From contig OX639965.1 of the NCBI GenBank assembly GCA_951828235.1, forward strand, positions 2,970,129 through 3,034,128: DNA of 64,000 bases. The letters run 5' to 3'. Positions 31,493-62,658 of this stretch are shown here, in pieces (the stretch's first letter is position 1; every line of letters starts with the position of its first letter). A program made the position numbers and the translations under genes. The notes beneath the pieces were generated by a model, which saw only the letters and a list, made by a program, of their open reading frames with translations, made no database searches and was not told the DNA's origin. This DNA is from an uncultured Gammaproteobacteria bacterium (GTDB lineage: Bacteria; Pseudomonadota; Gammaproteobacteria; Steroidobacterales; Foliamicaceae).

Positions 31493-31547
31493 GAGCTACG
31501 CACCAGGGAAAGAGAGCGCCCCGCCCTCACGCAGCCGCTTGCCGGAA

Positions 31548-47966: not shown

Positions 47967-48700
47967 GTGGACAGGAATCGCCTCGCCGTGCCCTCCAGAA
48001 CGAGGCAGGTCAGGCGGCCGGTGACGTAGGCGCCGGTGTCGATGCCGATCCGGTTGCGAGCGACGACGGGCTCGGGAGCAAACGCATGGCCATGGACGAT
48101 GATCTTGCCGTGATTGCCGGGGTCCTCCATGAACCCGTCCACGCCCCATAGCAGATCCTCTTCCCGTTGCGCCGCCAGCGGCGTTCCGGGCCGCACGCCT
48201 GCATGCACGAACGCGTAGCCCCCTTCGACGTGCAGCGTCGCAAGCCCGTTCAGGAAGTCCCTGTGGGCGTCGGGCAGCGCCTCGGCGAACGACACCCTCA
48301 CCGCCTCCAGGCAATCGGCGTTGCGCGGCCCGGGCGGCAGCGATACCCCGTAGCTGAGCAAGGTACCCTGGCCCCCCGCGGCCAGCCACTGCCGGGCGAC
48401 CCCGGCGTCATCGAGAAACGCGAGCACCCAAGCCTCATGATTGCCCTTGAGGAACACCGTCTCGAATCCCGGCGCGGGATCGCCCAGCAGGAACTCGATC
48501 ACCTCGCGCGACTGCAGGCCGCGGTCGACATAGTCGCCCAGGAAGACCAGCACGCGCCGCTCAGCGCGCGAGGTATCTCGGCGAACCATTGCCACCAGTC
48601 TGGCCAGCGGCCCGAGTTCGCCGTGAATATCGCCGATGGCGTAGACGCAAGTATCGTGCGGAACGGAGTATGTCTTTCGCGTCGACATCGGGGCGTTCAC
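47963..48700 (-). CDS. PPP-family metallophosphoesterase (Ser/Thr protein phosphatase, PrpA/ApaH-like)
   Basis: 245 aa. GDIHG, GDYVDRG, GNHE, then HGH near the C-terminus. Confidence 0.85.
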   Translation of the reverse strand: MNAPMSTRKTYSVPHDTCVYAIGDIHGELGPLARLVAMVRRDTSRAERRVLVFLGDYVDRGLQSREVIEFLLGDPAPGFETVFLKGNHEAWVLAFLDDAGVARQWLAAGGQGTLLSYGVSLPPGPRNADCLEAVRVSFAEALPDAHRDFLNGLATLHVEGGYAFVHAGVRPGTPLAAQREEDLLWGVDGFMEDPGNHGKIIVHGHAFAPEPVVARNRIGIDTGAYVTGRLTCLVLEGTARRFLST

Positions 48701-49484
48701 GGTCCGCCGCTCAGGGATTGCAGTCTTCGCCGCGCGGGTTTTCCCCGAACTGCGTTCGATATCGCGATCGAAGCGACCTCGCCGCCTGCGCCGCCGATGC
48801 GCGCAGTTTCTGCCATCCCCCGTCGAGATACCAGGTCAGCATCAGCGAGTTTCTCGGCGACTCCCCCCCCCGGAATCCGGTCCACCCCGTGCCAGCTGCT
48901 CGGCGTGACCCCGAACGCATACCCGGTATTTGGCAAGAATGGCAGCCTCACGAGCCTCTCCAGTTCTCCGACACCGTTGCGGCGGTACAAGGAGGTACCC
49001 AAATGGATTTGGCTCAGGTCCGCTGGCAGATAGAACTGCACCGTGATGAGCTTTGGGGGATGTCCTGATGCGGTCGGATGCGGTAGCCGGGCAGATCGCG
49101 CAAAAGTGAGATGCGCAAGTTGGTCCTTGCATCCGCAGGGATGGATCTGCTGGCGATAGAGGCGGCAAGTTTCTTCGCAAAGGCATGCTTCACCAGCGGA
49201 TGCCGCAAAGCGTCCGCGACCGCCTTCCAGAAACGGCGACGGGTTCCCTCCAGCGTCCGCAGACTCTCCTCTGTCAACGGGAACTCGAGCCGAGCGCAGC
49301 TTCCGTCCGCCAAAATCGCATCTTTGTGGCGCAGTTCGGCGTAATGGGTGGCGCGCGGCAGTAGACCGATCAGTTGCCTGTAGCTTTCCTCCGCAAAGAG
49401 GCGCTTCAACACGACGTAGTTGAATGGGCGGGGATTCAGAGGCGCGGCTTGGATGGCCTGCACGATTCGCTCGGTTTCAATCAT
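48697..49484 (-). pseudogene. 2OG-Fe(II) oxygenase-like gene split by a frameshift at a G5/C5 run
   Basis: ORFs 49484-49014 (..GYRIRPHQDIPQ..) and 49041-48697 (..QFYLPAD...SWHGV..) together give the HxD...H pattern. Reading one extra C at 49055-49059 would produce ..HQDIPPKLITVQFYLPAD.. in a single frame. Confidence 0.6.
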
Positions 49485-49707: not shown

Positions 49708-49926
49708 ATGAAACACCGCACCAGCGAACCGAAGCACTCTCCCGCGCGCCCGGCGGGAGACGCCGTGGCGCCGCACAACTCACCCCCGCCCCCGAATTTC
49801 AAACCAAGCTGGGCACGTCCGACAATCCGGGTCCTGCCGGTAGTCACGCACACGGCGTCCGGTACGCAGCCGTACACGGGCCCCAATCTCGAGGATCAAT
49901 CAGGGCACTACGTGACCACCTCCTGA
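49708..49926 (+). CDS. Candidate lasso-type precursor peptide P (72 aa)
   Basis: AAGGA lies 6 nt upstream of the ATG. MKHRTSEPKHSPARPAGDAVAPHNSPPPPNFKPSWARPTIRVLPVVTHTASGTQPYTGPNLEDQSGHYVTTS carries the shared leader motif WxRPx(V/I)R and the TxSG junction, with a C-terminal Ser. 177 nt upstream of the PqqD-like gene. Confidence 0.65.
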   Translation: MKHRTSEPKHSPARPAGDAVAPHNSPPPPNFKPSWARPTIRVLPVVTHTASGTQPYTGPNLEDQSGHYVTTS

Positions 49927-50102
49927 TGCTCCTCCGCGGCGCCGGCTCTAACGCGCGTACGTTAACGAGACATTCAACGGCTGCTCAAGCCAGCAGTATT
50001 TGCGCGCCGGCCCGCAAGAATCGGTCCGCTGCGCTTTCGCATATCCCGCTGGCTTAAAATGACGCCCGAAGGCACAACCGCCCACAACGAGGTAGCATCG
50101 GC

Positions 50103-50384
50103 ATGCAGGTTGAACCGGAAATGCGCGTCGCGCGCAACGACGACATCATCTTCACCGCACTCGACGATACGGTAGTCATGATGGACGTCGACAAAGGACG
50201 CTACTACGAACTCGACCCAACGGCCGCCTCCGTCTGGGCGTTGCTGGAGCGCGAATCCCTTGTGGCCAGCCTGTGCGACGCCTTGCTGGAGCGCTACGAC
50301 GTCTCCGCGGAAACCTGCCGCCGCGACTTACAGGCGTTTCTGGGCGAGCTCGCCGACCTCGGCGTCGTGCAAATCCGGGCGTGA
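50103..50384 (+). CDS. PqqD-family RiPP recognition element protein (lasso B1)
   Basis: 93 aa. ...DDTVVMMDVDKGRYYELDPTAASVWALLERESLVASLCDALLERYDVSAETCRRDLQAFLGELADLGVV is a typical PqqD/RRE winged-helix pattern. Confidence 0.85.
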   Translation: MQVEPEMRVARNDDIIFTALDDTVVMMDVDKGRYYELDPTAASVWALLERESLVASLCDALLERYDVSAETCRRDLQAFLGELADLGVVQIRA

Positions 50385-50449
50385 ACACGACACGTAGGAG
50401 GTAAAGATGAATGAGGCCGGGACCCACCGCCTCACGCAAGGATGTGAAT

Positions 50450-51271
50450 CTATGCGCCGGGCACCAGGAATTCGTATCCGAAATACTCGAAGTTGTCCCG
50501 GTGGCGCCGGAACACGCGGTTGAAGGTGTCAATCTCGGCAGCGCCGAGGCGCCCGATCTGGCGATCGTTCATGTTGGTGAGCATTTCGTTGTACCGACCC
50601 TCCTTCACCCATAGGCGCTGGCGCAGTACAAGGTCGTCGAGTTCCGGCGCCAACGCGCGGATTTTCTCTTCTACCCTTGCCGGTTCATCGCACATCTCCT
50701 CGTAGGTGAAGAACACCCCGCGTTCGCCGTGGCGCTCCAGGTTGCGGCGCTGATAGGAGAAACAGTTCGATACGTGCGTCGCCGCCAACGTGGGCAGGTC
50801 CTCGCGGTTCCCCAGGGAAGAGCCCCGCAGATTGCGGCAGATGCCCTCGCACACCGCGTACGGGTTGCGCACCATGAACAGGAACTTCGCGTTGGGAAAG
50901 TGCCGGACCAGCTCGCCGACGTAGAGCAGAAAGGGCGGGGCCTTCGTATAAAAGACCGACGCCCGGGAGTTGCGCGCGAATGCCTGGAAATACCACGCCT
51001 TGCGCGTGCGCGGCCAATCGTAGGCGCCGGGGTCGGTCAGCCGGGCAAGCCAGTCCGGCTGCGCGCTCCAGATGAGGGGGACTCTCCCCCGATTGACCGG
51101 CCCGACAAAGCCGAGCATCCTCTGACCTTCGTGCACAAGGTTCCAGGTCCCCCGGCACGTCGCCAGCGCTTCCTTGAGGAAGCTCGAACCGCTGTTGTTC
51201 GCCGCGATGCCGAATAGGTGCGTCCCCACGGCGCCCTCGACATCATGCTGGGCTCCGTATATCCGGCTCAT
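50450..51271 (-). CDS. Sulfotransferase-family protein
   Basis: Start at MSRIYGAQ (ATG 51271, 4-nt overlap with the GT8 stop). PAPS 5'-phosphosulfate-binding-like loop IAANNSGSSFL, later FMVRNPYA (3'-PB-like). Confidence 0.7.
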   Translation of the reverse strand: MSRIYGAQHDVEGAVGTHLFGIAANNSGSSFLKEALATCRGTWNLVHEGQRMLGFVGPVNRGRVPLIWSAQPDWLARLTDPGAYDWPRTRKAWYFQAFARNSRASVFYTKAPPFLLYVGELVRHFPNAKFLFMVRNPYAVCEGICRNLRGSSLGNREDLPTLAATHVSNCFSYQRRNLERHGERGVFFTYEEMCDEPARVEEKIRALAPELDDLVLRQRLWVKEGRYNEMLTNMNDRQIGRLGAAEIDTFNRVFRRHRDNFEYFGYEFLVPGA

Positions 51272-52218
51272 TCGGCTTCCCCCGGTTGCGGCGCCGCCCC
51301 TCCCGCGCCCCTTCCGGCCACCCGCGCCACGGCCCGCAGGTGGCCGCTGGCCAGACACTCCAGCCACGCCTCGTACCACAGCCCGAAAAAACGACTCGGA
51401 GGGAAACGCCCGTCTCCCATCAATTGCCACATCATCCGGTCCGGCATCCAGGGCTTGACCGCACCGGTGAAGTGCAGCACCTTCGCCTCTTCCGCACGAA
51501 TACCCTCGCGCGCCCGGATGGCGTCGACGAGGTGCGTTCGATAGTTGTAGGTTGAGCTGACCAGCGTCTGCTGGCCGGCGAAGCGCCGGTTCAGGAGAAA
51601 CTGATCGGAGTGCACCGTATCGGCGCCATGCCACGACTCCGTCGTCACCAGCTCCGCCAGTTCCGAGTACGCGCGTTCGCCCGTCAAGCGCCCGTCGATG
51701 AGCAGCACACCGCAGCTGAAAGTCCGTTCGAGCGCGCCTCCGGGACCGGCGCGCGACGGACTCTCGATTGGCCGATACGTGTCCGCATCGTGGCACCAAC
51801 CCCTCATGAACTCGGTGTCTCCGCAGCACAGCAACGACTCAGCGGAGTCGAAAAGCTCGTCGACCGGCCCGCGAAACAGGAGGTCGCAGTCACAGTAGAA
51901 AACTTTCCGGAAGCCCTCCATCCGGAAAGCCTCGAGGGAATAGAAATCCGGCAGCTTCGAGCGCATGGCCGGACGGGCCTCGCCGAGGCGGATGAGCCGC
52001 TGCTCAAGGGCGGCGCCCACCCGCTCGAAACGCAGCGGCGGAAACGCCGATTCGAGCGATTCGCGCAGTTGCCCGGGCAATCCATCATGGCAGAACACGA
52101 TGTCCCCGCCGAATCGCGGATGCTGTTTCAGGAAGGAGCCGATGCTAACAACGGCTCCCGGCAGGAAATTCTCCGTTGCCGCGAAAACGAGGCAGACATC
52201 ACTCCATCGTGCGCTCAT
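51268..52218 (-). CDS. Glycosyltransferase family 8-like (retaining GT-A)
   Basis: Start at MSARWSDVCLVFAATENF (ATG 52218, 4-nt overlap with the upstream stop). FYCDCDLLF (DxD), GVLLIDG, VLHFTGAVKPW. Confidence 0.75.
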   Translation of the reverse strand: MSARWSDVCLVFAATENFLPGAVVSIGSFLKQHPRFGGDIVFCHDGLPGQLRESLESAFPPLRFERVGAALEQRLIRLGEARPAMRSKLPDFYSLEAFRMEGFRKVFYCDCDLLFRGPVDELFDSAESLLCCGDTEFMRGWCHDADTYRPIESPSRAGPGGALERTFSCGVLLIDGRLTGERAYSELAELVTTESWHGADTVHSDQFLLNRRFAGQQTLVSSTYNYRTHLVDAIRAREGIRAEEAKVLHFTGAVKPWMPDRMMWQLMGDGRFPPSRFFGLWYEAWLECLASGHLRAVARVAGRGAGGAAPQPGEAE

Positions 52219-54158
52219 CGCGAATTCCCCCCTGCGTTGCGCCCGGCCGATCCATCCGCAAGAAACGCTTTCGCCTCGCCGAGGTAGCCGAAGCGTTCCA
52301 TGATCGGACCGTTCGCATCGATGACCGCCCGTACCTGATCCCGCGTAAGCTCGTCGCGCCATGCCCCCGCCCCGCCCGACCGGAAGAACAGGCGCGCCGT
52401 CGGCGGCTTCTCGAAGAACCCGGAACGCTTCTCCTGGGCGCGCAGGCGCTCGAAGCGGGCGCGCTCCACCGCCCGCGAAAGGCGCCCTGCCTCCGGCTCA
52501 AGGCCCGCAAAACGCAGCACCTCCTCAAAGGCGGCCGCCGGGTTCGCCAGCAGATTCTCGTAACGGGCAACGTGAACCGGCAGCTCCCCCTGGTCCAGCC
52601 AGCTCGCTACGTGGCCGCTCCAGGTGAGCAGGGGCTGCGGGAGCACATGGTGGATGCCCCCGACCGGCTGCGACAGAGCGGCGTCGGGACGACATAGTTC
52701 CGCCACGCTACGGGCGATGGACCAGTTCCAGAAGTGCGCGTTGGAAACCGCCACGTCGAGCGGGTTGCGAACGAGGTAAACCGCCCCGCAGGTCACGGAC
52801 GAAGGGAAGAGAAGGCTCCCGCCCGCGGTGCGCAGGCAGGCGTCGTGGACCTTGACGAAGGTTGGGCGCCGCAACTCGGCGGCCAGCAGTTCGTGAAGCC
52901 GCGGCCGCGCTCGCAGGATCTCGTCCGCGGTCAGGTCGGATGAGGGCAGCCCCAGCTGATCGTCGAAAACCTCGCGCTGTTGGAAGTCAAGCCTGCCCAC
53001 GAGCGCGTCGATGGAAGCCGGTCCGTCGCCGTCCTCCAGGTAGTTTGTCAGCAGCGCCCGCAGCCAGGTGTTGCCGGACCGGGGATAGGAAGCAAGCCAG
53101 ACGATGGGCCCTGCATTCCCCTCACGCAAGGCAACATGCTCCGCAACCTTCAGCCGCGGGCGGCTCTTGCCCGTCCGCCACGGCGATGCGTTCGCACCAT
53201 CGATGAGCCTTGGCCACCCGTCGCGCAGACAAGCTTCGACCTCGTCCGCCAGCGCATAGATAGGGCTGCGCCACACGGGTTGCACCAACCGGGCGACCGG
53301 CGCCCGACCCACCAGCGCCACGAGCGCCCGAAACTGGGCGCGCCCCTGTCCGAGCCCGTGCGCGTACCGCTTGCGGTAGATTCGCCCGAGCAGTTGCTCG
53401 AACGCCGCGCCGCGCGAAGGCGCATCGATCCTGAAGCCGTCCTTGTTGTGGTGCATGAGCGTGAAGACTCCGCGCACCGTGATCGGCGCCTCCCGGAAAC
53501 GCGGGGCGGGCGCCAGGTACTTCTCCATTCCTTCCCGCACCCGCCCCTGCACCCGGCTATTCCATCCCAGCGACTCCACCGCATCGGCCCACAGCCGAAG
53601 CCGTGGGTAGGCGGGCAGGGCCACGGGATGACCGCCTCCGTTCGGCACGATGCCCACCACGTCGTCGCAGAGCATCTCGTGCCCGCGGTCGAGCAGCGCC
53701 GCGAGCAGCGTGGATTTGCCGCTCCCGGAGTGGCCCGCAAACAGTACCGCGCCGGAGTCGGTGGCGATCGCACTCGCGTGCAGGGTGAGGACGCCGCGCT
53801 GCTTCAGGCACGCGGCCAGCACCGATCCGAGCAGGAAGGCGCTTACCGATGCGTCCCCGTCCCGGGCGGGTTGGACCGTGATCTCCCGCCCATCGCGGAC
53901 CAGGTAGCGGGCCACCGCGTCCACCACCATCAGGAAAACCCCGGGCGCAGCCTCCCAGGCACCGCGCCGCACCCGGGGTTTGGGCAGCGTATCCGGCACC
54001 GCGCCAATGCGGATGTCCACCTCCGTATCTGCCGTCGGGGAGGCGAGAGGAAGAGGAAGAGGAATCTCGGAGCGTATGACGAGCCCGTAGGCCGCGTAGT
54101 GGCGGGCGCCATGATCCATGGCGCTTTCCAGCGCCCGCACATTGTCCAGCCCGGTCAA
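52215..54158 (-). CDS. Fusion protein: HPr-kinase-like (HprK C-terminal domain-related) kinase plus C-terminal sulfotransferase domain
   Basis: 647 aa. N-terminal half has LHASAIATDSGAVLFAGHSGSGKSTLLAALLDRGHEMLCDDVV (HprK-like P-loop). C-terminal half has LASYPRSGNTWLRALL (sulfotransferase 5'-PSB) and YLVRNPLDVAVS (3'-PB). Confidence 0.8.
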   Translation of the reverse strand: MTGLDNVRALESAMDHGARHYAAYGLVIRSEIPLPLPLASPTADTEVDIRIGAVPDTLPKPRVRRGAWEAAPGVFLMVVDAVARYLVRDGREITVQPARDGDASVSAFLLGSVLAACLKQRGVLTLHASAIATDSGAVLFAGHSGSGKSTLLAALLDRGHEMLCDDVVGIVPNGGGHPVALPAYPRLRLWADAVESLGWNSRVQGRVREGMEKYLAPAPRFREAPITVRGVFTLMHHNKDGFRIDAPSRGAAFEQLLGRIYRKRYAHGLGQGRAQFRALVALVGRAPVARLVQPVWRSPIYALADEVEACLRDGWPRLIDGANASPWRTGKSRPRLKVAEHVALREGNAGPIVWLASYPRSGNTWLRALLTNYLEDGDGPASIDALVGRLDFQQREVFDDQLGLPSSDLTADEILRARPRLHELLAAELRRPTFVKVHDACLRTAGGSLLFPSSVTCGAVYLVRNPLDVAVSNAHFWNWSIARSVAELCRPDAALSQPVGGIHHVLPQPLLTWSGHVASWLDQGELPVHVARYENLLANPAAAFEEVLRFAGLEPEAGRLSRAVERARFERLRAQEKRSGFFEKPPTARLFFRSGGAGAWRDELTRDQVRAVIDANGPIMERFGYLGEAKAFLADGSAGRNAGGNSR

Positions 54159-54182
54159 GAGTCAGGCAGATGCCAAGGGCTA

Positions 54183-54374
54183 TCAGAAGAAAGGAAAATA
54201 GGTCGGGACGTGGTGCTCACCGCTTGGGTTCACATTTGAATCGCCACTTTCGGTGTGCTGCATTCCCATGATCCGAACGGCGGGACGGGTCCAGTGTGAT
54301 TTGCGCTGGATCGAGCGTCGTGGCGAGTTGTCAGCATACCCCCTCCCCCGCGTTTTCAGAGGAATGCGCTGCAT
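54183..54374 (-). CDS. Candidate lasso-type precursor peptide A (63 aa)
   Basis: MQRIPLKTRGRGYADNSPRRSIQRKSHWTRPAVRIMGMQHTESGDSNVNPSGEHHVPTYFPFF. Its stop lies 25 nt upstream of, and co-oriented with, the kinase-sulfotransferase gene. Shares the leader motif. In a hand alignment with the 59482 copy, 8 of 17 substitutions fall at codon position 3. Confidence 0.55.
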   Translation of the reverse strand: MQRIPLKTRGRGYADNSPRRSIQRKSHWTRPAVRIMGMQHTESGDSNVNPSGEHHVPTYFPFF

Positions 54375-54394
54375 CCGAAAACGGCACGGCCTTT

Positions 54395-55171
54395 ATGCTC
54401 GGTCGATTGTCAGACATTTCATTCACCTTGTTCCAGCAGGAAGACGCACCGTGCCAATACTACCACTCTCGCGGCTTTTCCGGCGCGGACCGCAATGCTA
54501 CACTCCGGCGCGTGGAGACGCACGAAGGACGTTCCGCTGCCCCGCCGGCGGCCGAACCCAGCGGGATCGCCCGCGTCCGGAAGCCGACCCGATTTCGTGC
54601 CCTCGGTTCGGTTGACGTGCAGGCGTTGCGGCGCCAGGTCGGGCGCCTCTCGGAGCGGGTCTGGAGGCAGGAAGACGCGATAAAGGAGAACGCCTATCGC
54701 TGCTTTGACCATACTCAGCACATCGTTTTTCGGTTCATCGAGGGCAACCGCGACCCGCGGCGGTTCTACTCGCAGCCGAGCTGGGCAGTCTGGAGTCCGA
54801 TGCTGCTCGCGGTAATGGAGCCGGCCGCGGCGCCGTACCGGTTTCAGGAGCCAGCCTTCCCCAAGGTGATGCTTGCCCGGCTCAAGCCGGGTCACGTGAT
54901 CGAACGGCACGACGATGGCGAGACCGACTGCTCGCACCCGTTCGTGCACAAAATCCATGTGCCGCTGGAGACGAATCTCGGAGCCCTGGTGCACGTGGAC
55001 GGCGAAGACCTCCACCTGGAGGTGGGACAGGCATGGGAGATCAATAACCTCGCGCGGCACGGAGCCGTGAACCGGGGACGAACGGATCGCATCCACCTTG
55101 TTTTCGAGGTCTTCGAAGGGGCGCAGGTGACGATGCCGGAAGATCGTCAACGCACAGCCGCCCGCACTTGA
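54395..55171 (+). CDS. Aspartyl/asparaginyl beta-hydroxylase-family (cupin) protein
   Basis: The ORF is open from GTG 54296; ATG 54395 is the conservative start. LARLKPGHVIERHDD...HKIHVPLETN...EVGQAWEINNLARHGAVN matches the Asp_Arg_Hydrox pattern. Confidence 0.75.
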   Translation: MLGRLSDISFTLFQQEDAPCQYYHSRGFSGADRNATLRRVETHEGRSAAPPAAEPSGIARVRKPTRFRALGSVDVQALRRQVGRLSERVWRQEDAIKENAYRCFDHTQHIVFRFIEGNRDPRRFYSQPSWAVWSPMLLAVMEPAAAPYRFQEPAFPKVMLARLKPGHVIERHDDGETDCSHPFVHKIHVPLETNLGALVHVDGEDLHLEVGQAWEINNLARHGAVNRGRTDRIHLVFEVFEGAQVTMPEDRQRTAART

Positions 55172-55241
55172 CGGACCGCCCGATGCCGCCCGCAGGCACG
55201 GCTGGCGTCCGATTTCGGCATCCGCAGGACACAAACACACC

Positions 55242-57089
55242 ATGAGCACGATCTGCGGCATCCAGGATCCTTCCGTCGCCGCCGCCCCCCAACTGGACGG
55301 CATGCTGGACGCACTGCCGGGCCGGGAGACCGACGCGCGCGCCGCGTGGGCGGGGACCTCGGCGGTCCTCGGCTGGCGGGGCCGGCCCGATGTCGGGGCC
55401 GGCGAGGCGCAGGGCGTGCCCCACTTCGACGCCGAGAGCGGACTGACGATCACCGCAAGCGTGCGCCTCGACGGGCGGAACACGCTGTGCGAGGCACTCG
55501 GCGTGCCCGGCGCGCAGCGGCACACGATCGCCGACAGCGTGCTCGTCCTCAAGGCCTACCAGCACTGGGGCCTGGAGTGTCCTCGGCATCTGCTTGGCGA
55601 CTTCGCGTTCGCGCTGTGGGATGAAAAGCGCCGGAGGCTGTTCTGCGCACGCGACCATGTGGGCGCGCGCGCCTTTTGCTATGCGTTCGCGGGGGAGCGC
55701 TTCATTTTCGCGAGCGACATCGACACGGTATTGGCCGCGCCCGGGGTCTGCGAGGAATTCGACGAGACCGTGGTCGCGACCCGCCTGACATACGGCGCCC
55801 GTCCCCTTGGGGACCGCACCTGCTACCGGTCCATCCGCCGGCTGCTCCCCGGTCATGCTCTCGTCGTCGAGCGCGGCGCGCGGCGCTTCAAGCGCTGGTG
55901 GCGTCCCGAGGAGTTGCCTGAAGTCCGGAACGCCTCCGACGACGCCATAGCGGAGGAGTGCCTGGCGATTCTGAGCGAAGCGGTGCGGGACCGCCTGCGG
56001 GGACGCAGGCCCGTTGGCGTGCACCTGAGCGGAGGCCTGGACTCGTCCAGCATCGCCGTCCTCGCGGCTCGCGAACTCGCGCGCCAGGGGAGCGCGCCCC
56101 CGGTCGCCTTCGGTTGGCATCCGCCGCCCGGCCGCGGGCCGCGGGACGCCGCGGCGGACGCCGAGTACGGACCCATCGAGGCGGTGTGCCGTCAGGAGGG
56201 CATCAACATCGTCTACCAATCTCCGCAGGCCCGCGACGTGGTCGATTTCCTGCGCCGCGACGGCACCCGCCGCGCGGACGAGGGCTCGCTGATCCACGAA
56301 CAGATCGTGCAGCGGGCCGCGGCCGCGCGGGGCGTCGGCCTGCTCCTGTCCGGGTGGGGAGGCGACGAAGGCATCTCCTTCAACGGCCGGGGCTACTACC
56401 CGCTGCTGCTGCGAACCGGCCGGCTGGGCAAGCTGTGGCGGGAACTGCGGGAGTGCAGCTCCCGCCCTCTCGCCATGCTTCTGGAGCACGCGGCGCTGCC
56501 GCTGCTCGCTCCCGGCGCGGCGCGCGCGTCAAGGCGGTTGCGCCTTGGAGAGTCGGCCTTGCGGAAAAACATCACGTTCATTCACCCGGAATTTGCGCGT
56601 CGGGCCACGCTGCTGCCCGCAAAATCCCGGCCCTCTCCGGGAGGGCGGGGCGAGCAACTGCATGTGCTCCAGCTCGGCCACCTGAGCCGGCGCATGGAGG
56701 GGTGGGCCGCCAGCGGCGCAAGCCTCGGGCTTGAGTACGCCTATCCCCTGCTGGACCGGCGGGTGCTGGAATTCGCCCTCGGCCTGCCGCCGGATCAGTA
56801 CCGGCGCGGACGCTGGAGCCGTTGGCTGATACGTCACGCGCTCGGCTCGGTCCTTCCGCCCGCGGTTCGGTGGAACCGGCAAAAACGAGATCCCGCGCGC
56901 TACGAGCCGGCACTCGACGCCCTCGCGGAGGCGCTGCCGGTGGTGCGCGGGATGATCGCGGAACGACCGCCGCCACGGGGCCGCTACCTGGACCTGCCGC
57001 GCCTGTTGGAGCAGATGGAACCGAAACGCTGGCGCGACGGCGGAAGGTATGGGCCGGTCCTGAACGCCTTGCGTTTCCTGGATTTTTAA
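55242..57089 (+). CDS. Asparagine synthetase-like lasso peptide cyclase (lasso C)
   Basis: 615 aa. N-terminal MSTICGI (Ntn-type Cys), PP-loop HLSGGLDSSSIA, and AsnB-like architecture, next to RRE/B2/ABC genes. Confidence 0.9.
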   Translation: MSTICGIQDPSVAAAPQLDGMLDALPGRETDARAAWAGTSAVLGWRGRPDVGAGEAQGVPHFDAESGLTITASVRLDGRNTLCEALGVPGAQRHTIADSVLVLKAYQHWGLECPRHLLGDFAFALWDEKRRRLFCARDHVGARAFCYAFAGERFIFASDIDTVLAAPGVCEEFDETVVATRLTYGARPLGDRTCYRSIRRLLPGHALVVERGARRFKRWWRPEELPEVRNASDDAIAEECLAILSEAVRDRLRGRRPVGVHLSGGLDSSSIAVLAARELARQGSAPPVAFGWHPPPGRGPRDAAADAEYGPIEAVCRQEGINIVYQSPQARDVVDFLRRDGTRRADEGSLIHEQIVQRAAAARGVGLLLSGWGGDEGISFNGRGYYPLLLRTGRLGKLWRELRECSSRPLAMLLEHAALPLLAPGAARASRRLRLGESALRKNITFIHPEFARRATLLPAKSRPSPGGRGEQLHVLQLGHLSRRMEGWAASGASLGLEYAYPLLDRRVLEFALGLPPDQYRRGRWSRWLIRHALGSVLPPAVRWNRQKRDPARYEPALDALAEALPVVRGMIAERPPPRGRYLDLPRLLEQMEPKRWRDGGRYGPVLNALRFLDF

Positions 57090-57178
57090 TCTTGTATGAC
57101 CGCTGCTGCCCTTGCCTCAAGCCTCTTGTATACTTCCCTTGGACCGACGGTAGTTGCAGCAAGTCAGAGGCGATTGGA

Positions 57179-57403
57179 ATGAACGACACTCCACATAACG
57201 CAGGGAAGGCGGTGCCTTCCGGTACTGCGAAGTACCCCAGATTGGGGGGGCAAGACTCACCCGGCCGTAAAGAGCACCGAGGCGACAGGCTACCGTGGTC
57301 TCGCCCCGCGGTGCGCGTAATGACAGGAGTCCGATCAACCAAGAGCGGACCAGAGGCTAACAATCCATCTGTGGAGAACGAATTTTATCGACCAACATCT
57401 TGA
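57179..57403 (+). CDS. Candidate lasso-type precursor peptide C (74 aa)
   Basis: AGAGG lies 8 nt upstream of the ATG. MNDTPHNAGKAVPSGTAKYPRLGGQDSPGRKEHRGDRLPWSRPAVRVMTGVRSTKSGPEANNPSVENEFYRPTS. Lies between the cyclase and the ABC exporter. Has the leader motif, the TKSG junction and a C-terminal Ser. Confidence 0.7.
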   Translation: MNDTPHNAGKAVPSGTAKYPRLGGQDSPGRKEHRGDRLPWSRPAVRVMTGVRSTKSGPEANNPSVENEFYRPTS

Positions 57404-57655
57404 CCCTGCACAGACGACATAAGCACATAACACGGCAGAACAGGCTCTCTTGAACGCGCGCCATCGTCCAGGGCATTGCTATAGGGCGTGATTCAATTCT
57501 CCCTGTTCGCCTCGGCATTGCCATCGCGCCAGCGCATTGTTACGGTAGCCGCAGGTTCCCTGCCTGATTTCCGCGAGGCAATTGACACCGATTCAGATTT
57601 TGCCTGCCTCCGCGCCGGTGTCACGCACCACTGAAACCCGGACCCGGCTGGCGCC

Positions 57656-59491
57656 ATGACGGCGCAACCCACGCCCCAGAACCCCACAATGCCCCGCTCG
57701 GCCGAAGGCGCGTTTCGCGGCGCCGGCGCCCTCGTCGCCGAACTGCTCGCCCGAGCGCCCGGCCTTTCCGCGCTTGCGCTCGCGCTGCTCCTGACCGCGG
57801 CCGTGACAGAGGCGTTCGGCCTTGCGTTGATCGTTCCCCTGCTGTACGTCACGGGTCTTGCCGAATCCTCCGGCAACCGTCCCCCCGTAGTGGACGCCGT
57901 CGCCGCCGCCGCCGAACGCATCGGCCTGGAACTCACGCTGCCGTCGGTTCTCGCCATCTTTCTGGCGCTGGCTGCCGTGCGTGTCGCCGCCGCATGGCAG
58001 CGGCAGCAGGTCCTGGCCCGCCTCGCGCACGGATTCGAGGACCGGCTTCGCGGCGATCTATACGCCGCGACGGCTTCGGCGAAGTGGTCCCACCTGATCC
58101 GCTGGCGCCGCTCCGACATCCACCATGCGCTGACTCGGGAAATTCGCCGCGCCGGGAGCAGCGTCAACCTGCTCTGTCAGCTCGCCGCAGGCTCAGTGCT
58201 TGCACTGGCCCAGTTTGCCGTCGCCGTCGCGATCGACCCGCTGGTCTCGCTCGGCGCGTTGGTCGCCGGCGCCGCACTGGCGTTCCTGACGGTCCCGCTG
58301 GCTTCGCGCTCCTCGCGCCGCGGCACGCAGTTGACGCGGCGCAACGAGGCGCTGCACGCCCTGGTGTCGGACTTCCTGGCCGGTCTCAGGCTCGTCAAGA
58401 GCCACAACGCCGAAGGGCGCCACCTCGGGGACTTCACGGCCGCGGCGCGCGCGACCCGGCAAAGCGAGCTGGCGTCCCGGGCCACGCTCGCCGCCGCGCG
58501 CGCCGTCATGGACCTGGGCGCGGCATGTACGCTGGCCGCCCTGGCCTACGCGGCGATCATCTTTTCCGGCCTGGCTCTGCCCGAACTGCTCGTTCTGGTG
58601 CTGGTCTTCGCCCGCCTGATACCGTCCCTCTCGCGCCTGCAGCAGTTCGCCCAGCAGCTGGCCCAGCAATTGCCGGCCTACGCGCACGCCACCGGCATGA
58701 TCCGCCGGTTGCGCCGGGGCGCCGAGCCGATCCCGAAGGAAAGCCGCTTCCCGCTGCGCCTGCGCGACGCCCTGAACGTGTCCGGCCTTTCGTTCGCTTA
58801 CCCATCCTCGCCCGAAACCCCGGTCCTGACGGACGTGAACCTGTGCGTTCCGACCGGCCGATTCGTCGCCGTCATGGGTCCGTCGGGCGTCGGCAAAAGC
58901 ACGTTCGCAGACCTTCTTTTCGGCCTCCTGGAGCCCTGCCGCGGCGAGATCGCGATCGACGGCGCGCCGTTGACGCCTGCCAACGCGCGGCGCTGGCGCG
59001 ATTCGGCCGCCTACGTCCCCCAGGAGCCCTACCTGTTTCACGAATCCATCCGCGCCAACATGCTCAGAGCCAACCCGAAGGCTTCCGGCGCCGAACTTGA
59101 ACGGTCGCTCTCCCTCGCCGACGCCCGCCGCTTCGTCGATGCCCTGCCCCGGGGACTCGACACGGTGGTCGGTGATCGCGGCGCCCGCCTTTCGAGCGGC
59201 GAGCGCCAGCGCATCGCGATCGCTCAGGCGTTGCTCCGGAACCCGGCGCTGCTACTGCTCGACGAACCCACCGCAAATCTGGACGCCGCCTCGGAGCGCC
59301 GGATCGTGGCGACGCTGGCCTCCCTGTGCCCACGCGTCACGGTCGTGACCATGACCCACCGGCCGGAGCCCGCCAAGCACGCGGACAACATCGTCCTGCT
59401 ACGATCCGGCCGCGTTGCCGCCACCGGACGCTGGAGTGAACTCGAAGCCGCGCTCGAGGGTCCGCTAGATGCCAAGGGCGATCAGGAGTAA
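57656..59491 (+). CDS. ABC transporter, fused permease/ATPase (lasso D-type exporter)
   Basis: 611 aa. 6 TM helices, then Walker A GPSGVGKST, signature LSSGERQRIAIA, Walker B LLLLDEP. Confidence 0.9.
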   Translation: MTAQPTPQNPTMPRSAEGAFRGAGALVAELLARAPGLSALALALLLTAAVTEAFGLALIVPLLYVTGLAESSGNRPPVVDAVAAAAERIGLELTLPSVLAIFLALAAVRVAAAWQRQQVLARLAHGFEDRLRGDLYAATASAKWSHLIRWRRSDIHHALTREIRRAGSSVNLLCQLAAGSVLALAQFAVAVAIDPLVSLGALVAGAALAFLTVPLASRSSRRGTQLTRRNEALHALVSDFLAGLRLVKSHNAEGRHLGDFTAAARATRQSELASRATLAAARAVMDLGAACTLAALAYAAIIFSGLALPELLVLVLVFARLIPSLSRLQQFAQQLAQQLPAYAHATGMIRRLRRGAEPIPKESRFPLRLRDALNVSGLSFAYPSSPETPVLTDVNLCVPTGRFVAVMGPSGVGKSTFADLLFGLLEPCRGEIAIDGAPLTPANARRWRDSAAYVPQEPYLFHESIRANMLRANPKASGAELERSLSLADARRFVDALPRGLDTVVGDRGARLSSGERQRIAIAQALLRNPALLLLDEPTANLDAASERRIVATLASLCPRVTVVTMTHRPEPAKHADNIVLLRSGRVAATGRWSELEAALEGPLDAKGDQE

Positions 59492-59637
59492 GGAAAATAG
59501 GTGGGGACGTGGTGCTCACCGCTTGGGTTCACGTCCGGATCGCCACTTTCAGTGCGCTCCATTGCCATGACCCGGACCGTGGGGCGAGTCCAGTGTGATT
59601 TGCGCGGGGCTGCGCGTCGTAGCGAGTTGTCAGCAAT
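59482..59637 (-). CDS. Precursor-like coding segment B1 (paralog of peptide A); start codon unresolved
   Basis: ..IADNSLRRAAPRKSHWTRPTVRVMAMERTESGDPDVNPSGEHHVPTYFPYS, stop at 59482. No ATG/GTG/TTG lies between the G14 tract and the leader motif. Only the frame through the G14 tract (TTG 59769) is open. The A-like upstream frame (GTG at about 59686) would need 13 or 16 G. Confidence 0.45.
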   Translation of the reverse strand: MADNSLRRAAPRKSHWTRPTVRVMAMERTESGDPDVNPSGEHHVPTYFPYS

Positions 59638-59834
59638 CCCCCCCCCCCCCCAATTTCCAGGGAATGCGCTGGTGGATGCGCCACACCGAAGGACACCGTA
59701 AAGAGCACCCAGGCGACAGGCTACCGTGGTCCCGCCCCGCCGTGCGTTTTTTGGAAGGAGTCCGATCAACCGCGACCGGACCAGAATTCTATAGGGTAGA
59801 GAATACGCCTCACTATGGACCTACTGCGTCTTAG
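59595..59834 (+). CDS. Candidate lasso-type precursor peptide B2 (79 aa from GTG 59595; alternative ATG 59664 or 59676)
   Basis: MICAGLRVVASCQQSPPPPNFQGMRWWMRHTEGHRKEHPGDRLPWSRPAVRFLEGVRSTATGPEFYRVENTPHYGPTAS. Shares GRKEHxGDRLPWSRPAVR with peptide C and SPPPPNF with peptide P. Gly-to-Glu spacing of 8 and a C-terminal Ser. Confidence 0.6.
   Translation: MICAGLRVVASCQQSPPPPNFQGMRWWMRHTEGHRKEHPGDRLPWSRPAVRFLEGVRSTATGPEFYRVENTPHYGPTAS
59638..59651. repeat. Homopolymer C14 (G14 on the minus strand)
   Basis: Read directly: ...cagcaat cccccccccccccc aatttcc. Lies in the overlap of the 5' regions of the divergent ORFs B1(-) and B2(+). Confidence 0.95.
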
Positions 59835-59871
59835 CCCGATGCGGCTCGCGTAAATGCCGAGGAGCCAAGGC

Positions 59872-61188
59872 TCATGGGCGTACTGGGCATTTCGGCTTCT
59901 CTTTCGCATCCCCCGCAACCTGCAGACGTCCCGTACCGCCCCGGCGCGTTGTAGCTTGGCCGGAGCGTTTCCTGTTGCGCTCCAGCCTGCTGGCCAGCCA
60001 CAGGATCGGGCGCAGCGGCAGGTAGAGGAAGAACAGCCGATCAGGCAAATCCACCCTCCCCAAATCGTACGGCGCTACGCAAAGCCGGGCCAACTCGTGC
60101 GCCGCGCTGCGCCAGGACGGGTTCATCGCCTGACCGAGCCACAATTCGTCCATCCGTCGATCGAGGCCCTCAAGCCCTTTGCCGCCGTGCGGCCGGTTCC
60201 AGAGACGGCGAGTCGAGCGCATTGCGCGGCCGGCCCAGGCGCCCGGCGGCGGAAAAGCCGCAGGCGGGTCCACATGGAACATTTCCGAACACAGGAGAAG
60301 AGCCGCTCCGAACGCGGGCTCCAGCCGCAGTCCCTCGCGCCTGCACCGCTCGACGGCCGCAACGAGGTGGTCCTCGTCCATGGAAGCGAGCAGCGCAGCC
60401 ATGTCGCAAAGCCACTTCAGCCGGCTCCAGCGATGAAGCTGGCCGTGGATGGCCAGGTAGACCATCAGGTCGCCGTCGCCCAGGGAGGCGAAGGCTTGGC
60501 CGCCGATCTCGACGCTGACCGTGCTGGCGCTCAGCGTTTCAAAGGACGCGCGCAACAGGAACGGGTTGTTGACCAGGCGATGGTGCAGTTCCAGCTTGCC
60601 GTGGGGGCCGATAAAGAGGCGGTCCTTGACAAACCGGTCGTAGTGGCGGATGCGGGCCGGAGTCGGGTGAAATGACGGCTTGACAAGGCGCCAGCCACCC
60701 GACGCCAGAGCTTGGGCAGCCTCCGCGGCCTGCTCCCGCGGGACCAGCAGGTCAATGTCGATACAGTCCCTTGCAAGCGGCGTGCCGAACAACCGCATGC
60801 TCAGCGGCAGGCCCTTGAGCACCAGCGACGGAATACCGCTTGCGGCCAGACGATCCGTAGCCTCACGCAGGTCCGCGAGCTGCCGCAACCCTCGTCTCAT
60901 CCTGTGCTGTCGGAAGGGCTCCAGTGCAGCTTGCGCGTCGGGACTCGGGTCCGCGACGGCGCTCACGCCGCGGAGCAACAGCGAACCGACCCGGTGGCGC
61001 CTGGCGAGAGCGGCTACGGCGTTCCAGTCGGCGACGCCGTCGAGCGCCGCGGTATCCGCCTCCCGTGTGCCGACGCCCATGCCAAGGCGCAGCCCGGCAA
61101 GAAGGCCCGCGAACGGCGGCGTTCGAGCGCTGCGTGCGTTCCGCCGCTGCGCCGCCGCCGATGTTCCCATCAGGCCTTTCGGCATCAT
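59872..61188 (-). CDS. Uncharacterised nucleotidyltransferase-family protein (PF14907-like)
   Basis: 438 aa. ...LVLKGLPLSMRLFGTPLARDCIDIDLLVP... (GS/DxD nucleotidyltransferase-fold motif). 4-nt overlap with the upstream B2 gene. Confidence 0.7.
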   Translation of the reverse strand: MMPKGLMGTSAAAQRRNARSARTPPFAGLLAGLRLGMGVGTREADTAALDGVADWNAVAALARRHRVGSLLLRGVSAVADPSPDAQAALEPFRQHRMRRGLRQLADLREATDRLAASGIPSLVLKGLPLSMRLFGTPLARDCIDIDLLVPREQAAEAAQALASGGWRLVKPSFHPTPARIRHYDRFVKDRLFIGPHGKLELHHRLVNNPFLLRASFETLSASTVSVEIGGQAFASLGDGDLMVYLAIHGQLHRWSRLKWLCDMAALLASMDEDHLVAAVERCRREGLRLEPAFGAALLLCSEMFHVDPPAAFPPPGAWAGRAMRSTRRLWNRPHGGKGLEGLDRRMDELWLGQAMNPSWRSAAHELARLCVAPYDLGRVDLPDRLFFLYLPLRPILWLASRLERNRKRSGQATTRRGGTGRLQVAGDAKEKPKCPVRP

Positions 61189-61844
61189 GGCGATCTGGTC
61201 GACGAACGTCCCGGTTCGTCACCGTTGGGATACAGTGGCGACAGTGGAACGTAGGTGTCAAGTTCCCCGCCCCCGATGACGCACTGCCCGGCGACCATCA
61301 GCCAGGCGTGGTACTCGAGAGTCCGCTCCGGCGTTCGGCCTCGCCGCGCGCCGAAGACAAGACGGCTCGGGATACTCCGCCGGCGCAGCATCCATTGCGC
61401 CGCCATGGCCTGCGGCAGACAAAGCGCCTGGAACGGCAGGCGGCGGGCCACCTTGCGGACGACGCGCGCCATCTTTCGGGGGATACGCAGTCTCGCTGCC
61501 GCGCGCCGCTCTTCGTCGGCGCGTTCAGCCGGCCGCTCATCCGCGCCCGGGAGCATAGTGGAGCGCCGTTGCCTGGGCGATTCGGCGCGTTCGGGACAGG
61601 GCGAAGACTCCGGCACCATATCAAGACGACGGCGCCAGAACCGCATCGGCACATGCGCGACAAGCAGTCGCGCCAGCAGCAGGGTGAACGCCGCTTCCAG
61701 CGCCAGCGCCTGCGTTGCGGCCGGCAGGCGCAGAAAACTGCGAAGTCCGTTGACGGACGACGAAGCCCCGCGCTTTGCTGCGGCAAGCCGGCCCGCCCGC
61801 CGTCCCTGTTTCTTCATTTCGTCCTCGCCCACCACCTGCGCCAA
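61185..61844 (-). CDS. Lasso peptide biosynthesis B2 protein (transglutaminase-like cysteine protease, PF13471-like)
   Basis: 219 aa. ...LPFQALCLPQAMAAQWMLRRRSIPSRLVFGARRG....LEYHAWLMVAGQCVIGG gives the Cys...His pattern and the overall signature of leader peptidases of split-B lasso clusters. Confidence 0.85.
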   Translation of the reverse strand: MAQVVGEDEMKKQGRRAGRLAAAKRGASSSVNGLRSFLRLPAATQALALEAAFTLLLARLLVAHVPMRFWRRRLDMVPESSPCPERAESPRQRRSTMLPGADERPAERADEERRAAARLRIPRKMARVVRKVARRLPFQALCLPQAMAAQWMLRRRSIPSRLVFGARRGRTPERTLEYHAWLMVAGQCVIGGGELDTYVPLSPLYPNGDEPGRSSTRSP

Positions 61845-62058: not shown

Positions 62059-62658
62059 TTACAAGAATCGCTCGGTGACCCTTACGACGTCGCCCGGCAG
62101 CACCTCATCGGTAACCGGTATAGGGCGTTCCGCGCGCGTGTCGTCGGTTGCGCGAATAATCATTACGCGGTTTGTGCGGGCCCGGTAGGTAAAGCCGCCG
62201 CCCAGCGCCACCGCTTCCCTAACGGTCATGCCGCTGACGTAGGGGTAGGGGCCGGGGTTGTTCACCTCGCCGATGATGTAGAAGGGCCGGTACTCCAGCA
62301 CCTCGACGCTGACCCTGGGATTCAGCAGGTAGTCGGGCTTGAGCGCCTCCACGACCATTTCCTGCGCTTCGCTGACTGTTGCTCCGCTAAAATCCAGCAC
62401 GCCAACCAGGGGCATGGCGATGGTACCGTTTTCACTGACCAGGAACTCTCCGCTCAGATCCTCGTGGCCAAAAACCGTGACGCGGATTCGGTCGCCGTGA
62501 CCGAGCACGTATTCTGATGCGGGCGCCTCGGAGGGCGTCTGATCCGTAGCGATCGCTTCGAACGAGTACGCCATTGCGATGCAAATAACTGCGGCGATGC
62601 TGAAACAACGCCGGTTTGCGGGAGTGCTGGTGGAGGGGCACGTCCGCGGCAAGCTCAT
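62059..62658 (-). CDS. Polysaccharide export protein (Wza/GumB/EpsA-like; Poly_export plus SLBB)
   Basis: 199 aa. YVLGHGDRIRVTVFGHEDLSGEFLVSENGTIAMPLVG and RPFYIIGEVNNPGPYPY. Confidence 0.85.
   Translation of the reverse strand: MSLPRTCPSTSTPANRRCFSIAAVICIAMAYSFEAIATDQTPSEAPASEYVLGHGDRIRVTVFGHEDLSGEFLVSENGTIAMPLVGVLDFSGATVSEAQEMVVEALKPDYLLNPRVSVEVLEYRPFYIIGEVNNPGPYPYVSGMTVREAVALGGGFTYRARTNRVMIIRATDDTRAERPIPVTDEVLPGDVVRVTERFL

Follow-up and report, generated by a model that had tools for sequence, protein, structure and literature searches.

The region at positions 49,708 to 61,844 of the DNA stretch analyzed here (the window: 64,000 nucleotides of contig OX639965.1, from an uncultured Gammaproteobacteria bacterium of the Foliamicaceae) raises the question of whether genes scattered over both strands can constitute one pathway for a lasso peptide and, if so, what kind of peptide would be produced. 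The great stability of lasso peptides makes them valued scaffolds. A preliminary description had read the region as a dispersed cluster for a lasso-type peptide that is ribosomally synthesized and modified post-translationally (RiPP), with four hallmark functions, at least five tailoring genes and five precursor-like open reading frames (ORFs). By its gene content, the region is a lasso-peptide-type gene cluster with five precursor genes, and it very probably encodes a functional pathway of the kinase-type group. The cluster is a heavily tailored variant of the kinase-type lasso clusters within a large uncharacterized clade, and it is of interest less for its layout than for three features: the non-canonical ring-acceptor position, the sulfation predicted for the product, and homopolymer tracts within the leader-coding DNA.

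Core enzymes and conserved synteny

Genes in the window (GC content 59–68%) were called from third-position GC and then by profile searches with Pfam and NCBIfam. Each of the four hallmark functions was found where the preliminary description had placed it. B1 (50103..50384, plus strand) is a PqqD-like RiPP recognition element (RRE) of 93 residues matching PF05402 (E = 2.7e-21). B2 (61185..61844, minus strand; the likely start is the ATG at 61817 or later), the putative leader peptidase, is a transglutaminase-like Cys protease that matches PF13471 (E = 9.1e-22) and contains the strings CLPQAMA and EYHAWL quoted earlier. The cyclase (55242..57089, plus strand), an Asn-synthetase-like macrolactam synthetase of 615 residues, matches PF00733 (E = 9.8e-31) and GATase_7 and possesses the PP-loop SGGLDSS. 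The ATP-binding cassette (ABC) exporter (57656..59491, plus strand; 611 residues) has fused membrane and ATPase domains (ABC_membrane, PF00664; ABC_tran, PF00005, E = 1.4e-30) and is placed in the families HepA/CydD/MsbA by NCBIfam. B1 and B2 are 10.8 kb apart, close to the distance of about 11 kb given earlier, and the genes lie on both strands as described.

Two outcomes had been named as speaking against the lasso reading: failure of B1 or B2 in the profile searches, and clustering of the cyclase with genuine AsnB enzymes. B2 not only falls in PF13471 but also passes the curated lasso B2 model NF033537 (73.4 bits, cut-off 33), and the two best NCBIfam matches of B1, in addition to PF05402, are the lasso models lasso_PqqD_Bac (60.6 bits) and lasso_PqqD_Strm (49.5 bits), both under their curated cut-offs. 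Since Asn-synthetase-like amidotransferases also occur in exopolysaccharide (EPS) loci, the proteins were scored with NCBIfam. The cyclase scores 325 bits with the lasso cyclase model NF033535, compared with 162.6 bits for TIGR01536 and 139.4 bits for the XrtA/PEP-CTERM amidotransferase model TIGR03108, and fails the cut-offs of the latter two models (267 and 817, respectively). Judged by the model scores, the cyclase is nearer to lasso cyclases than to AsnB. The lasso interpretation is thus supported, since neither outcome was found. The window B1 also fails the HPr-rel-A equivalog TIGR04353 (PqqD; 23.8 bits, cut-off 35), as does the window kinase described below in the case of TIGR04352 (kinase A; 35.4 bits, cut-off 200).

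The catalytic motifs of the core enzymes are well kept. The SGGLDSS motif is invariant across 40 cyclase homologues, and among 41 B2 homologues the catalytic Cys (CLPQA) is kept in 88% and the catalytic His (HAW) in 100%. Glutamine-hydrolysing enzymes have an N-terminal Cys nucleophile. The N-terminus of the cyclase is M-S-T-I-C-G (MICG in homologues), so that the Cys residue is not N-terminal. An exact-sequence look-up of the window cyclase returned no record. Sequence searches of the PDB gave no meaningful match for B2 and generic amidotransferases only (7ylz, AsnB) for the cyclase, no solved lasso cyclase being detectable by sequence.

One genome per species was scanned with a pattern, which gave at least 571 cyclase relatives; the 79 best loci were retained, and co-occurrence was counted by iterated profile searches for genes within 10 kb of 83 homologous cyclases (loci L001–L083). 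The loci span at least seven bacterial phyla or classes, including Gemmatimonadota, Acidobacteriota, Binatia, many metagenome-assembled genomes (MAGs) of Gammaproteobacteria/Pseudomonadales, Alphaproteobacteria including Sphingomonadales, Chloroflexota, and Verrucomicrobiota; the nearest relative of the window cyclase (99%) is in a Gemmatimonadetes MAG (contig JAGWBR010000032.1). A kinase domain is found near the cyclase in 70 of the 83 loci, a Sulfotransfer_1 domain (ST1) in 58, PqqD in 47, a Sulfotransfer_3 protein (ST3) in 44, a family-8 glycosyltransferase (GT8) in 43, an AspH-like dioxygenase (AspH) in 39, the ABC exporter in 32, and a PF14907 enzyme in 30. The loci L001, L003, and L004, in which the cyclases are 62–75% identical to that of the window, have the same gene set. 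This gene set is syntenic in many unrelated genomes, and its association is therefore far beyond chance.

The dispersed layout stressed in the preliminary description is true of the window but is not a property of the system. The proposed comparison of synteny shows that the gene set recurs in related genomes, where the layout is in some cases compact. In L003, PqqD, cyclase, GT8, ST3, AspH, kinase-ST1, B2, and ABC genes form a compact co-directional operon, and L001 is mostly co-directional. The window holds a shuffled copy of a conserved cassette, since the set is compact in some genomes. The genes in the window form four co-directional runs, namely A1-PqqD (plus), A4-kinase/ST1-GT8-ST3 (minus), AspH-cyclase-A2-ABC-A5 (plus), and BBP2_2-Poly_export-B2-PF14907-A3 (minus), where A1–A5 are the precursors; from this arrangement we infer four transcription units. 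Genomes with two to six cyclase loci usually hold B2, ABC, and PF14907 in one locus only, whereas the satellite loci keep their own cyclase, precursors, and some tailoring genes (L007–L066; L016, L019, L021, L026, L045, and L060 on OY282353.1). B1, B2, and ABC are often even farther from the cyclase family-wide than in the window. In L001 (the 75% relative), a second, divergent cyclase paralogue, 61% identical to the window cyclase, and an ABC exporter are located at the cluster edge (1–3719), and the cluster has at least seven precursors.

These counts also bear on the possibility that the genes simply belong to an EPS locus, the cyclase being an EPS-associated amidotransferase and the GT8 enzyme and sulfotransferases building a sulfated polysaccharide. 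The cluster is indeed embedded in a Wzx/Wzy-type EPS locus, EPS-type genes adjoin 9 of the 40 loci carrying B2 or PF14907 but none of the 43 loci without them, and the cyclase partially matches TIGR03108. However, this match is far under its cut-off and under the score with the lasso cyclase model. The cassette with precursors occurs without any EPS gene in 74 of the 83 loci, the GT8 and sulfotransferase genes follow the cyclase and precursors even in satellite loci, and EPS synthesis has no use for PqqD, B2, or a conserved precursor family. The EPS-amidotransferase reading is rejected on the basis of the model scores and the synteny independent of EPS genes, and an EPS function of the whole set is hardly credible.

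Precursor family and position of the ring acceptor

All five precursor-like ORFs noted earlier are paralogues in a single precursor family. The family was found by comparing small ORFs between loci and was extended with an iterated hidden Markov model (HMM) to 137 unique members in 64 loci, with up to nine members per locus; statistics on the cores are based on 117 cores. In the window, A1 (49708..49926, plus strand; 72 residues, E = 1e-10 with the precursor HMM) has a leader ending ...SPPPPNFKPSWARPTIRVLPVVTHTA and the core SGTQPYTGPNLEDQSGHYVTTS, and begins with an ATG preceded by a Shine-Dalgarno-like GAAGGA site. A2 (57179..57403, plus strand; 74 residues, E = 9e-15; core SGPEANNPSVENEFYRPTS) likewise has an ATG with a GAGG site. 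A3 (59482..59769, minus strand; E = 1e-11; core SGDPDVNPSGEHHVPTYFPYS) comprises 95 residues from TTG, the only start available, and is an 85%-identical DNA duplicate of the locus of A4. A4 (54183..54374, minus strand; 63 residues, E = 4e-12; core SGDSNVNPSGEHHVPTYFPFF) is followed, 60 nt downstream on its own strand, by the kinase-sulfotransferase gene. A5 (59595..59834, plus strand; E = 7e-10; core TGPEFYRVENTPHYGPTAS) comprises 79 residues from GTG. None of the NCBIfam precursor models matches any of the five window precursors even at E ≤ 10.

The precursors share an architecture of an N-terminal stretch, often with PPPP or GGGG, followed by (K/R)RPW-x-x-P-x-(V/I), T-x, S/G/T-G, and the core. 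The leader motif W-x-x-P-x-(V/I)...T-x followed by S/T-G is present in all five window precursors. The cores are 19–22 residues long in the window, with a median of 19 residues family-wide. Position 1 of the core is Ser in 64, Gly in 25, Thr in 13, Asn in 9, and Ala in 6 of the 117 cores, and position 2 is Gly in 99. The C-terminal residue is Ser in 111 of the cores and in four of the five window precursors, and a Tyr residue is found 3–4 residues before the C-terminus in 72. In L003, a single ORF (9154–9675) joins the PqqD/RRE domain to a full leader and core (...PQPAWATPTVRVMSIKRTKSGPHTNYLPGEQFVYAPPPS), the sole case of an RRE-substrate fusion among the 83 loci.

The positions of the acidic residues in the cores should be noted, since natural lasso rings close on Asp or Glu at position 7, 8, or 9 (PMC9266682, PMC13352647). 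Counted from the conserved T-x|S-G junction, A1 has acidic residues only at E12 and D13, A2 at E4, E11, and E13, A3 at D3, D5, and E11, and A4 at D3 and E11. Only A5 in the window, with E4 and E9, places an acid where canonical rings close. Family-wide, 66 of the 117 cores have no acid at 7–9 under the T-x cut, and the precursors of the clade mostly have their sole candidate acceptor at positions 9–12. Among the acids from position 7 onward, the first is at 7 in 8 cores, at 8 in 12, at 9 in 31, at 10 in 25, at 11 in 29, and at 12 in 11. Rings of 9–13 residues are predicted when the conserved junction is taken as the cleavage site. This distribution means that either rings of 10–13 residues would be made or cleavage or trimming departs from the canonical rule. 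A literature search found no report of a lasso ring above 9 residues.

The second possibility would give a canonical lasso peptide with a ring of 7–9 residues, if the cut is not at T-x|S-G, if the N-terminus is trimmed later, or if only precursors with an acid at 7–9 such as A5 are real substrates. An acid at 7–9 is present in 51 of the 117 cores as counted, and in 75 if the cut is made one residue later, with Gly as residue 1. The register of the cut is also not certain in view of the leader. The canonical lasso leader is YxxPxL...Tx with a Y-to-T spacing of 15, and the corresponding W-to-T spacing is 13–14 in this family. Furthermore, the Sphingomonadales cores look canonical, e.g. GGPITSAPE. 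On the other hand, 42 cores still fail with the later cut, and 41 cores have no acid at 7–9 under either cut, including four of the five in the window; E12 and D13 are the sole acids in A1. The distance from the N-terminus to the acid (9.8 ± 1.4) is tighter than that from the acid to the C-terminus (10.0 ± 2.8), which fits an acid placed relative to the new N-terminus. In addition, the non-canonical copies are conserved, and A2 has a hypervariable core behind a conserved leader. We therefore regard a canonical ring as a doubtful though serious alternative.

The candidate acceptor differs by 2–5 positions within one locus, so that a single cyclase would have to be tolerant. Such tolerance is not without parallel. 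One caulosegnin enzyme set processes several precursors to ring sizes 8 and 9, and the fusilassin enzymes tolerate engineered rings of 7–10 residues (PMC13352647). The natural lasso rings known so far are of 7, 8, or 9 residues, however, whereas the acceptor in the clade of the window varies by 2–5 positions per locus and reaches position 12. The point also matters for genome mining. RODEO scoring requires an acid at positions 7–9, and tools with this demand would miss or down-rank most precursors of the clade; together with the lack of a match to the NCBIfam precursor models, this suggests that the clade is probably under-counted by mining tools.

The core of A2 is hypervariable. A close relative of the window is found in an independent MAG (L005), the genomes being 98.7% identical. 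The A2 core differs between the two at 10 of 57 nt (17.5 per 100 nt; positions 57344–57400), whereas the leader differs at 1 of 165 nt (0.6 per 100 nt) and the enzymes at about 1 per 100 nt. All of the changes between SGPEANNPSVENEFYRPTS in the window and SGPDELTPAVENEFYRPTS in L005 are inside the presumed ring segment. Such a conserved leader followed by a diversifying core is a hallmark of RiPPs and speaks for functional genes. Other hot spots of difference between the window and L005 are at 57068–57127 and at 58088–58207, the latter within the ABC gene.

Several observations weigh against a functional lasso pathway of the kinase type. Four of the five window cores lack Asp/Glu at the only acceptor positions known in natural lassos. 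Neither an ATG nor a GTG start is available to A3, A4 ends in Phe (...YFPFF) instead of the terminal Ser, and the ATG of A5 may be in another frame. B2 is within 10 kb of the cyclase in only 36 of the 83 loci. The cyclase and B1 score under the strict NCBIfam cut-offs (325 versus 525 bits for NF033535 and 60.6 versus 80 bits for PqqD), suggesting that they belong to a divergent branch. A scan of 48.5–64 kb for promoters and terminators was uninformative (1 promoter versus 1.3 expected, 12 terminators versus 10.8), the clade has no reported mature product, and the sequence comes from a MAG.

Some of these points could indicate a decaying, non-functional remnant, in which the layout, the startless precursors, and the lost Ser would be signs of pseudogenization. 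In L005, the counterpart of A4 (7998–8171; 98%-identical relative) ends in ...YFPFS, showing that the near-invariant Ser has been lost in the window copy. A neighboring ORF pair at 48697–49484 also looks broken, and 280 bp of it are deleted in L005. However, the nine enzyme genes are all intact, with coding-type third-position GC (0.74–0.85) and their catalytic residues kept, and A1 and A2 have ATG codons with Shine-Dalgarno-like sites. The independent MAG has the same arrangement at 98–99% identity, with substitutions concentrated in one precursor core. A remnant is therefore quite unlikely, and the functional lasso-type pathway is retained as the preferred reading below.

Tailoring enzymes and the predicted product

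The five tailoring genes mentioned in the preliminary description encode ST3, GT8, a fusion of an HprK-like kinase with ST1, an Asp_Arg_Hydrox protein (AspH), and a PF14907 enzyme. The fusion enzyme (52215..54122, minus strand, in an ORF extending to 54158; 635 residues, start placed by alignment) consists of an N-terminal HprK/ScmC-like peptide kinase, with Hpr_kinase_C and P-loop matches, and a C-terminal ST1 domain (PF00685, E = 1.6e-21). In the systems of PadeK, ThcoK, and SyanK, phosphorylation takes place on the linear precursor at its C-terminal Ser, and the three kinases have in common a His-Lys-Asp-Asp motif (PMC9266682, PMC8498205) that is essential in lasso kinases (PMC9266682). The corresponding residues H125/K146/D163/D164 are kept in 81–95% of 88 homologues. 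The near-invariant C-terminal Ser and the HprK-like kinase together place the cluster in the kinase-type lasso group.

The nearest PDB relatives of the fused sulfotransferase domain are Teg12, Teg14, and StaL (E = 2.7e-13), followed by aryl and tyrosine-ester sulfotransferases, and the motifs for binding 3′-phosphoadenosine 5′-phosphosulfate align with those of Teg12. Teg12, Teg14, and StaL sulfate phenolic hydroxyls of a peptide natural product, though they are stand-alone enzymes acting on non-ribosomal glycopeptides. An acceptor Tyr in the window is proposed from the conserved Tyr residue. The kinase/sulfotransferase family is large, with at least 2,151 clusters at 50% identity (exhaustive search, E ≤ 1e-30), in which the two domains are fused in the order found in the window, fused in the reverse order, or separate (P0121, P0138–P0141, and others). 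This Rosetta-stone pattern suggests that the two activities act on one substrate. Sulfotransferases in lasso clusters have been mentioned as putative only (PMC8498205), and no report of a sulfated lasso peptide was found in a literature search. The conserved Tyr is thus a candidate substrate site for enzymes that have been called merely "putative" in lasso clusters since 2016, and its modification would add sulfation to lasso chemistry.

GT8 (51268..52218, minus strand; 316 residues, PF01501, E = 9.4e-17) and the stand-alone ST3 (50450..51271, minus strand; 273 residues, start set by homology, PF13469, E = 6.9e-11) are translationally coupled and co-occur; the stop codon of the kinase-ST1 gene overlaps the ATG of GT8, and that of GT8 overlaps the ATG of ST3. 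The AspH-like Fe(II)/2-oxoglutarate (2OG) dioxygenase, which resembles Asp/Asn β-hydroxylases (ORF 54296..55171, plus strand, conserved from about 54520; PF05118, E = 4.7e-11), keeps the RH-x-D...HG triad in comparison with L001, L003, and L004. Asp or Asn directly follows the acid in 30 of 80 cores with AspH versus 5 of 36 without it (Fisher p = 0.015), which is a hint only, because the copies are phylogenetically non-independent. The PF14907 nucleotidyltransferase-like enzyme (59872..61188, minus strand; 438 residues, E = 1.6e-46), found in the search that had been proposed with this model, keeps D138-x-D140 in 97% of 31 homologues. It would correspond to PsmN of the pseudomycoidin cluster, an "uncharacterised nucleotidyltransferase" that adds hexose to phospho-Ser and for which D134/D136 are essential; bulky groups at the C-terminus were suggested to keep the tail locked within the ring (PMC6993621).

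Comparison with known systems illustrates both the kinship and the divergence of the cluster. The paeninodin (Paenibacillus dendritiformis, PadeK) and ThcoK systems of Firmicutes share with it the split B1/B2, the cyclase, the ABC exporter, a kinase with the H-K-D-D motif, and a Ser-ended precursor. They differ in that the window kinase is fused to a sulfotransferase, that there are five precursors rather than one, and that the leader and core families are unrelated. The ring acid of paeninodin is aligned with the Ala1–Asp9 ring of pseudomycoidin, whereas the candidate acid in the window is at 9–12. The psm cluster of pseudomycoidin (Bacillus pseudomycoides) has a kinase (PsmK) and PsmN with its D-x-D motif, to which PF14907 is likened by family description and motif, but it has no GT8, sulfotransferase, or AspH-like gene.

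The nearest studied relative is probably the SyanK cluster of Sphingobium yanoikuyae, because Sphingomonadales loci (L059, L061, L062, L073–L075, and L081–L083) fall in the same cyclase family with 35–40% identity. The likeness of these loci extends to the kinase-sulfotransferase, AspH, PF14907, PqqD, and Ser-ended precursors; their cores differ from most window cores in having acids at canonical positions. In S. yanoikuyae the kinase step alone has been demonstrated, and the compound is described as a putative lasso peptide (PMC8498205), so that no mature compound is known for the clade.

On the basis of these enzyme families, the following pathway is proposed. The five paralogous precursors A1–A5 would be made and B1 would bind the leader. 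The HprK-like domain would then phosphorylate the C-terminal Ser before cyclization, as PadeK, ThcoK, and SyanK do, and the fused Teg12/StaL-like domain would most likely O-sulfate the conserved Tyr located 3–4 residues upstream, the choice of Tyr resting on this proximity to the phosphorylated Ser. The PF14907 enzyme would put a hexose on the phospho-Ser in the manner of PsmN, and GT8 and the second sulfotransferase may extend or sulfate the glycan or modify Ser/Thr by sulfation, while the AspH-like dioxygenase would hydroxylate Asp or Asn beside the ring acid. B2 would cleave after T-x, and the cyclase would adenylate the core Glu or Asp and couple it to the new N-terminal amine. Finally, the ABC pump would export the anionic product.

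The topology of this product should be considered, since a ring of 10 or more residues may be unable to trap the tail, giving an unthreaded branched-cyclic (lariat) macrolactam. Wild-type pseudomycoidin purified from Escherichia coli behaved as branched-cyclic unless a bulky residue or modification was present (PMC6993621). In the clade of the window, the predicted rings are large and the tails after the acid are short (approximately 10 residues on average). Against this, a conserved aromatic residue is located 3–6 residues past the acid (86 of 116 cores), and the C-terminus is predicted to carry bulky anionic groups; both could act as plugs. Moreover, all characterized products of the enzyme family are made threaded (PMC13352647). 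A lariat is thus improbable, and a threaded topology is the predicted one. If it is adopted, the clade would test the limits on ring size and how threading is maintained.

A Metallophos protein encoded at 47963–48700 is weakly similar to Ser/Thr protein phosphatases and ApaH, and adjoins PF14907 in five loci. Its target could be a (poly)phospho-Ser of the peptide rather than a polysaccharide.

Homopolymer tracts and the exopolysaccharide surroundings

The leader-coding DNA of the family contains unusual homopolymers. The window has a C14/G14 tract (59638..59651), read as PPPP in the plus-strand A5 leader and as GGGG in the minus-strand A3 leader. The leader-coding regions of A3 and A5 overlap antisense, and each precursor ends its co-directional run, the two runs converging there. 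An ATG at 59567, out of frame with A5, reads into the tract, and a C13 or C16 tract would give an in-frame fusion. C- or G-runs of 9–27 nt are found in the leader-coding DNA of approximately 80 of the 137 family precursors. In the tracts, CCC accounts for 91% of Pro codons and GGG for 82% of Gly codons, compared with 29% and 24% in neighboring genes, respectively. Of 112 such runs in the 1.69 Mb examined, 83 are in or just upstream of precursor ORFs, which make up 2.3% of the DNA, an enrichment of approximately 120-fold. Because poly-Pro and poly-Gly are chemically unrelated, the DNA tract is a likelier conserved feature than the peptide segment.

Of the 38 copies with an in-frame ATG, 36 have the tract 7–73 nt past it. 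When an ATG was sought within 120 nt, it was in frame in 36 copies, while in 41 copies the sole ATG leads into the tract in another frame. In L001, the N-terminus of one copy, though out of frame, is homologous to that encoded in frame by a neighboring copy. Of 16 pairs with flanks at least 90% identical, 13 differ in tract length, the largest difference being 11 nt. Assemblies are prone to errors in homopolymer length, and a sequencing artifact may underlie the ON/OFF state seen in a single assembly. The L005 assembly has an N-gap exactly at the tract and the A3–A5 region, and the length comparison rests on the other pairs of the family.

Homopolymeric simple-sequence contingency loci are known from phase-variable genes of Haemophilus, Neisseria, and Campylobacter. 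The tracts resemble them in being G/C homopolymers of at least 9 nt just after the start codon, in varying in length among near-identical relatives, and in leaving many copies out of frame. They differ in that RiPP precursor genes have so far been unreported among such loci, in agreement with our literature search, in which no phase-variable RiPP precursor gene was found, and in that the tract lengths are read here from assemblies alone. The enrichment, the frame shifts, and the length variation form a signature of slipped-strand contingency and suggest that individual precursors are stochastically switched ON and OFF by tract slippage, i.e. that they may be phase-variable. Such stochastic switching among alternative secreted peptides would be a regulatory mode not described for RiPPs, and it would matter for host-associated bacteria, for instance the sponge-type symbionts, where multiplication of the loci is greatest.

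The full combination, in which rings of 10–13 residues hold a tail secured by sulfo-Tyr and a phospho-Ser-linked, possibly sulfated glycan, and in which tracts switch the choice of precursor in what would be the first phase-variable RiPP repertoire, is put forward as a tentative possibility only.

The window flanks form the Wzx/Wzy-type EPS locus according to Pfam. The left flank (46581–48700 included) encodes a Wzz/GNVR kinase, a flippase, GT4, a formyltransferase, an epimerase, Bac_transf, Wzy_C, and the Metallophos protein. On the right, a Poly_export/SLBB protein (62059–62658, minus strand; weak EpsE match) and a BBP2_2 outer-membrane β-barrel (62655–63998, minus strand; weak EpsL match) are encoded directly upstream of B2, PF14907, and A3 on the same strand. 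Their membership in the pathway is possible, and the cluster boundaries should probably be widened to this side. EPS-type neighbors (Poly_export, BBP2_2, Metallophos, Wzy_C, Bac_transf) adjoin the B2/PF14907 side in L001, L015, L041, L042, L039, L043, L057, and L006, from four phyla or classes. The block of B2/PF14907, BBP2_2, and Poly_export recurs in L001 and L015 (Alphaproteobacteria), and B2 adjoins Poly_export/BBP2_2 in L041 (Pseudomonadales), the three loci representing three phyla or classes. Between the window and L015 or L041, identity is 63–64% for Poly_export but only 44–48% for the cyclases. The lasso genes split the EPS locus in the window but sit beside it in L001. Co-transfer, a common site of insertion, or a shared route of outer-membrane export may explain the link.

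The two ORFs of the apparently broken pair at 48697–49484 (minus strand; 156 and 114 residues) look like halves of one gene (...RIRPHQDIPQ / QFYLPADL...GTSLY...WHGV). The region includes a C9 run at 48863–48871, in addition to the 280 bp missing in L005. A frameshifted 2OG oxygenase made up of the ORFs 49014–49484 and 48697–49041 was considered, but it is unsupported, since the merged sequence has no Pfam or NCBIfam match. Upstream of the EPS locus, at 28835–32909, a TauD/TfdA-family dioxygenase (E = 2.4e-59) is encoded beside two major facilitator superfamily transporters and is unrelated to the cluster.

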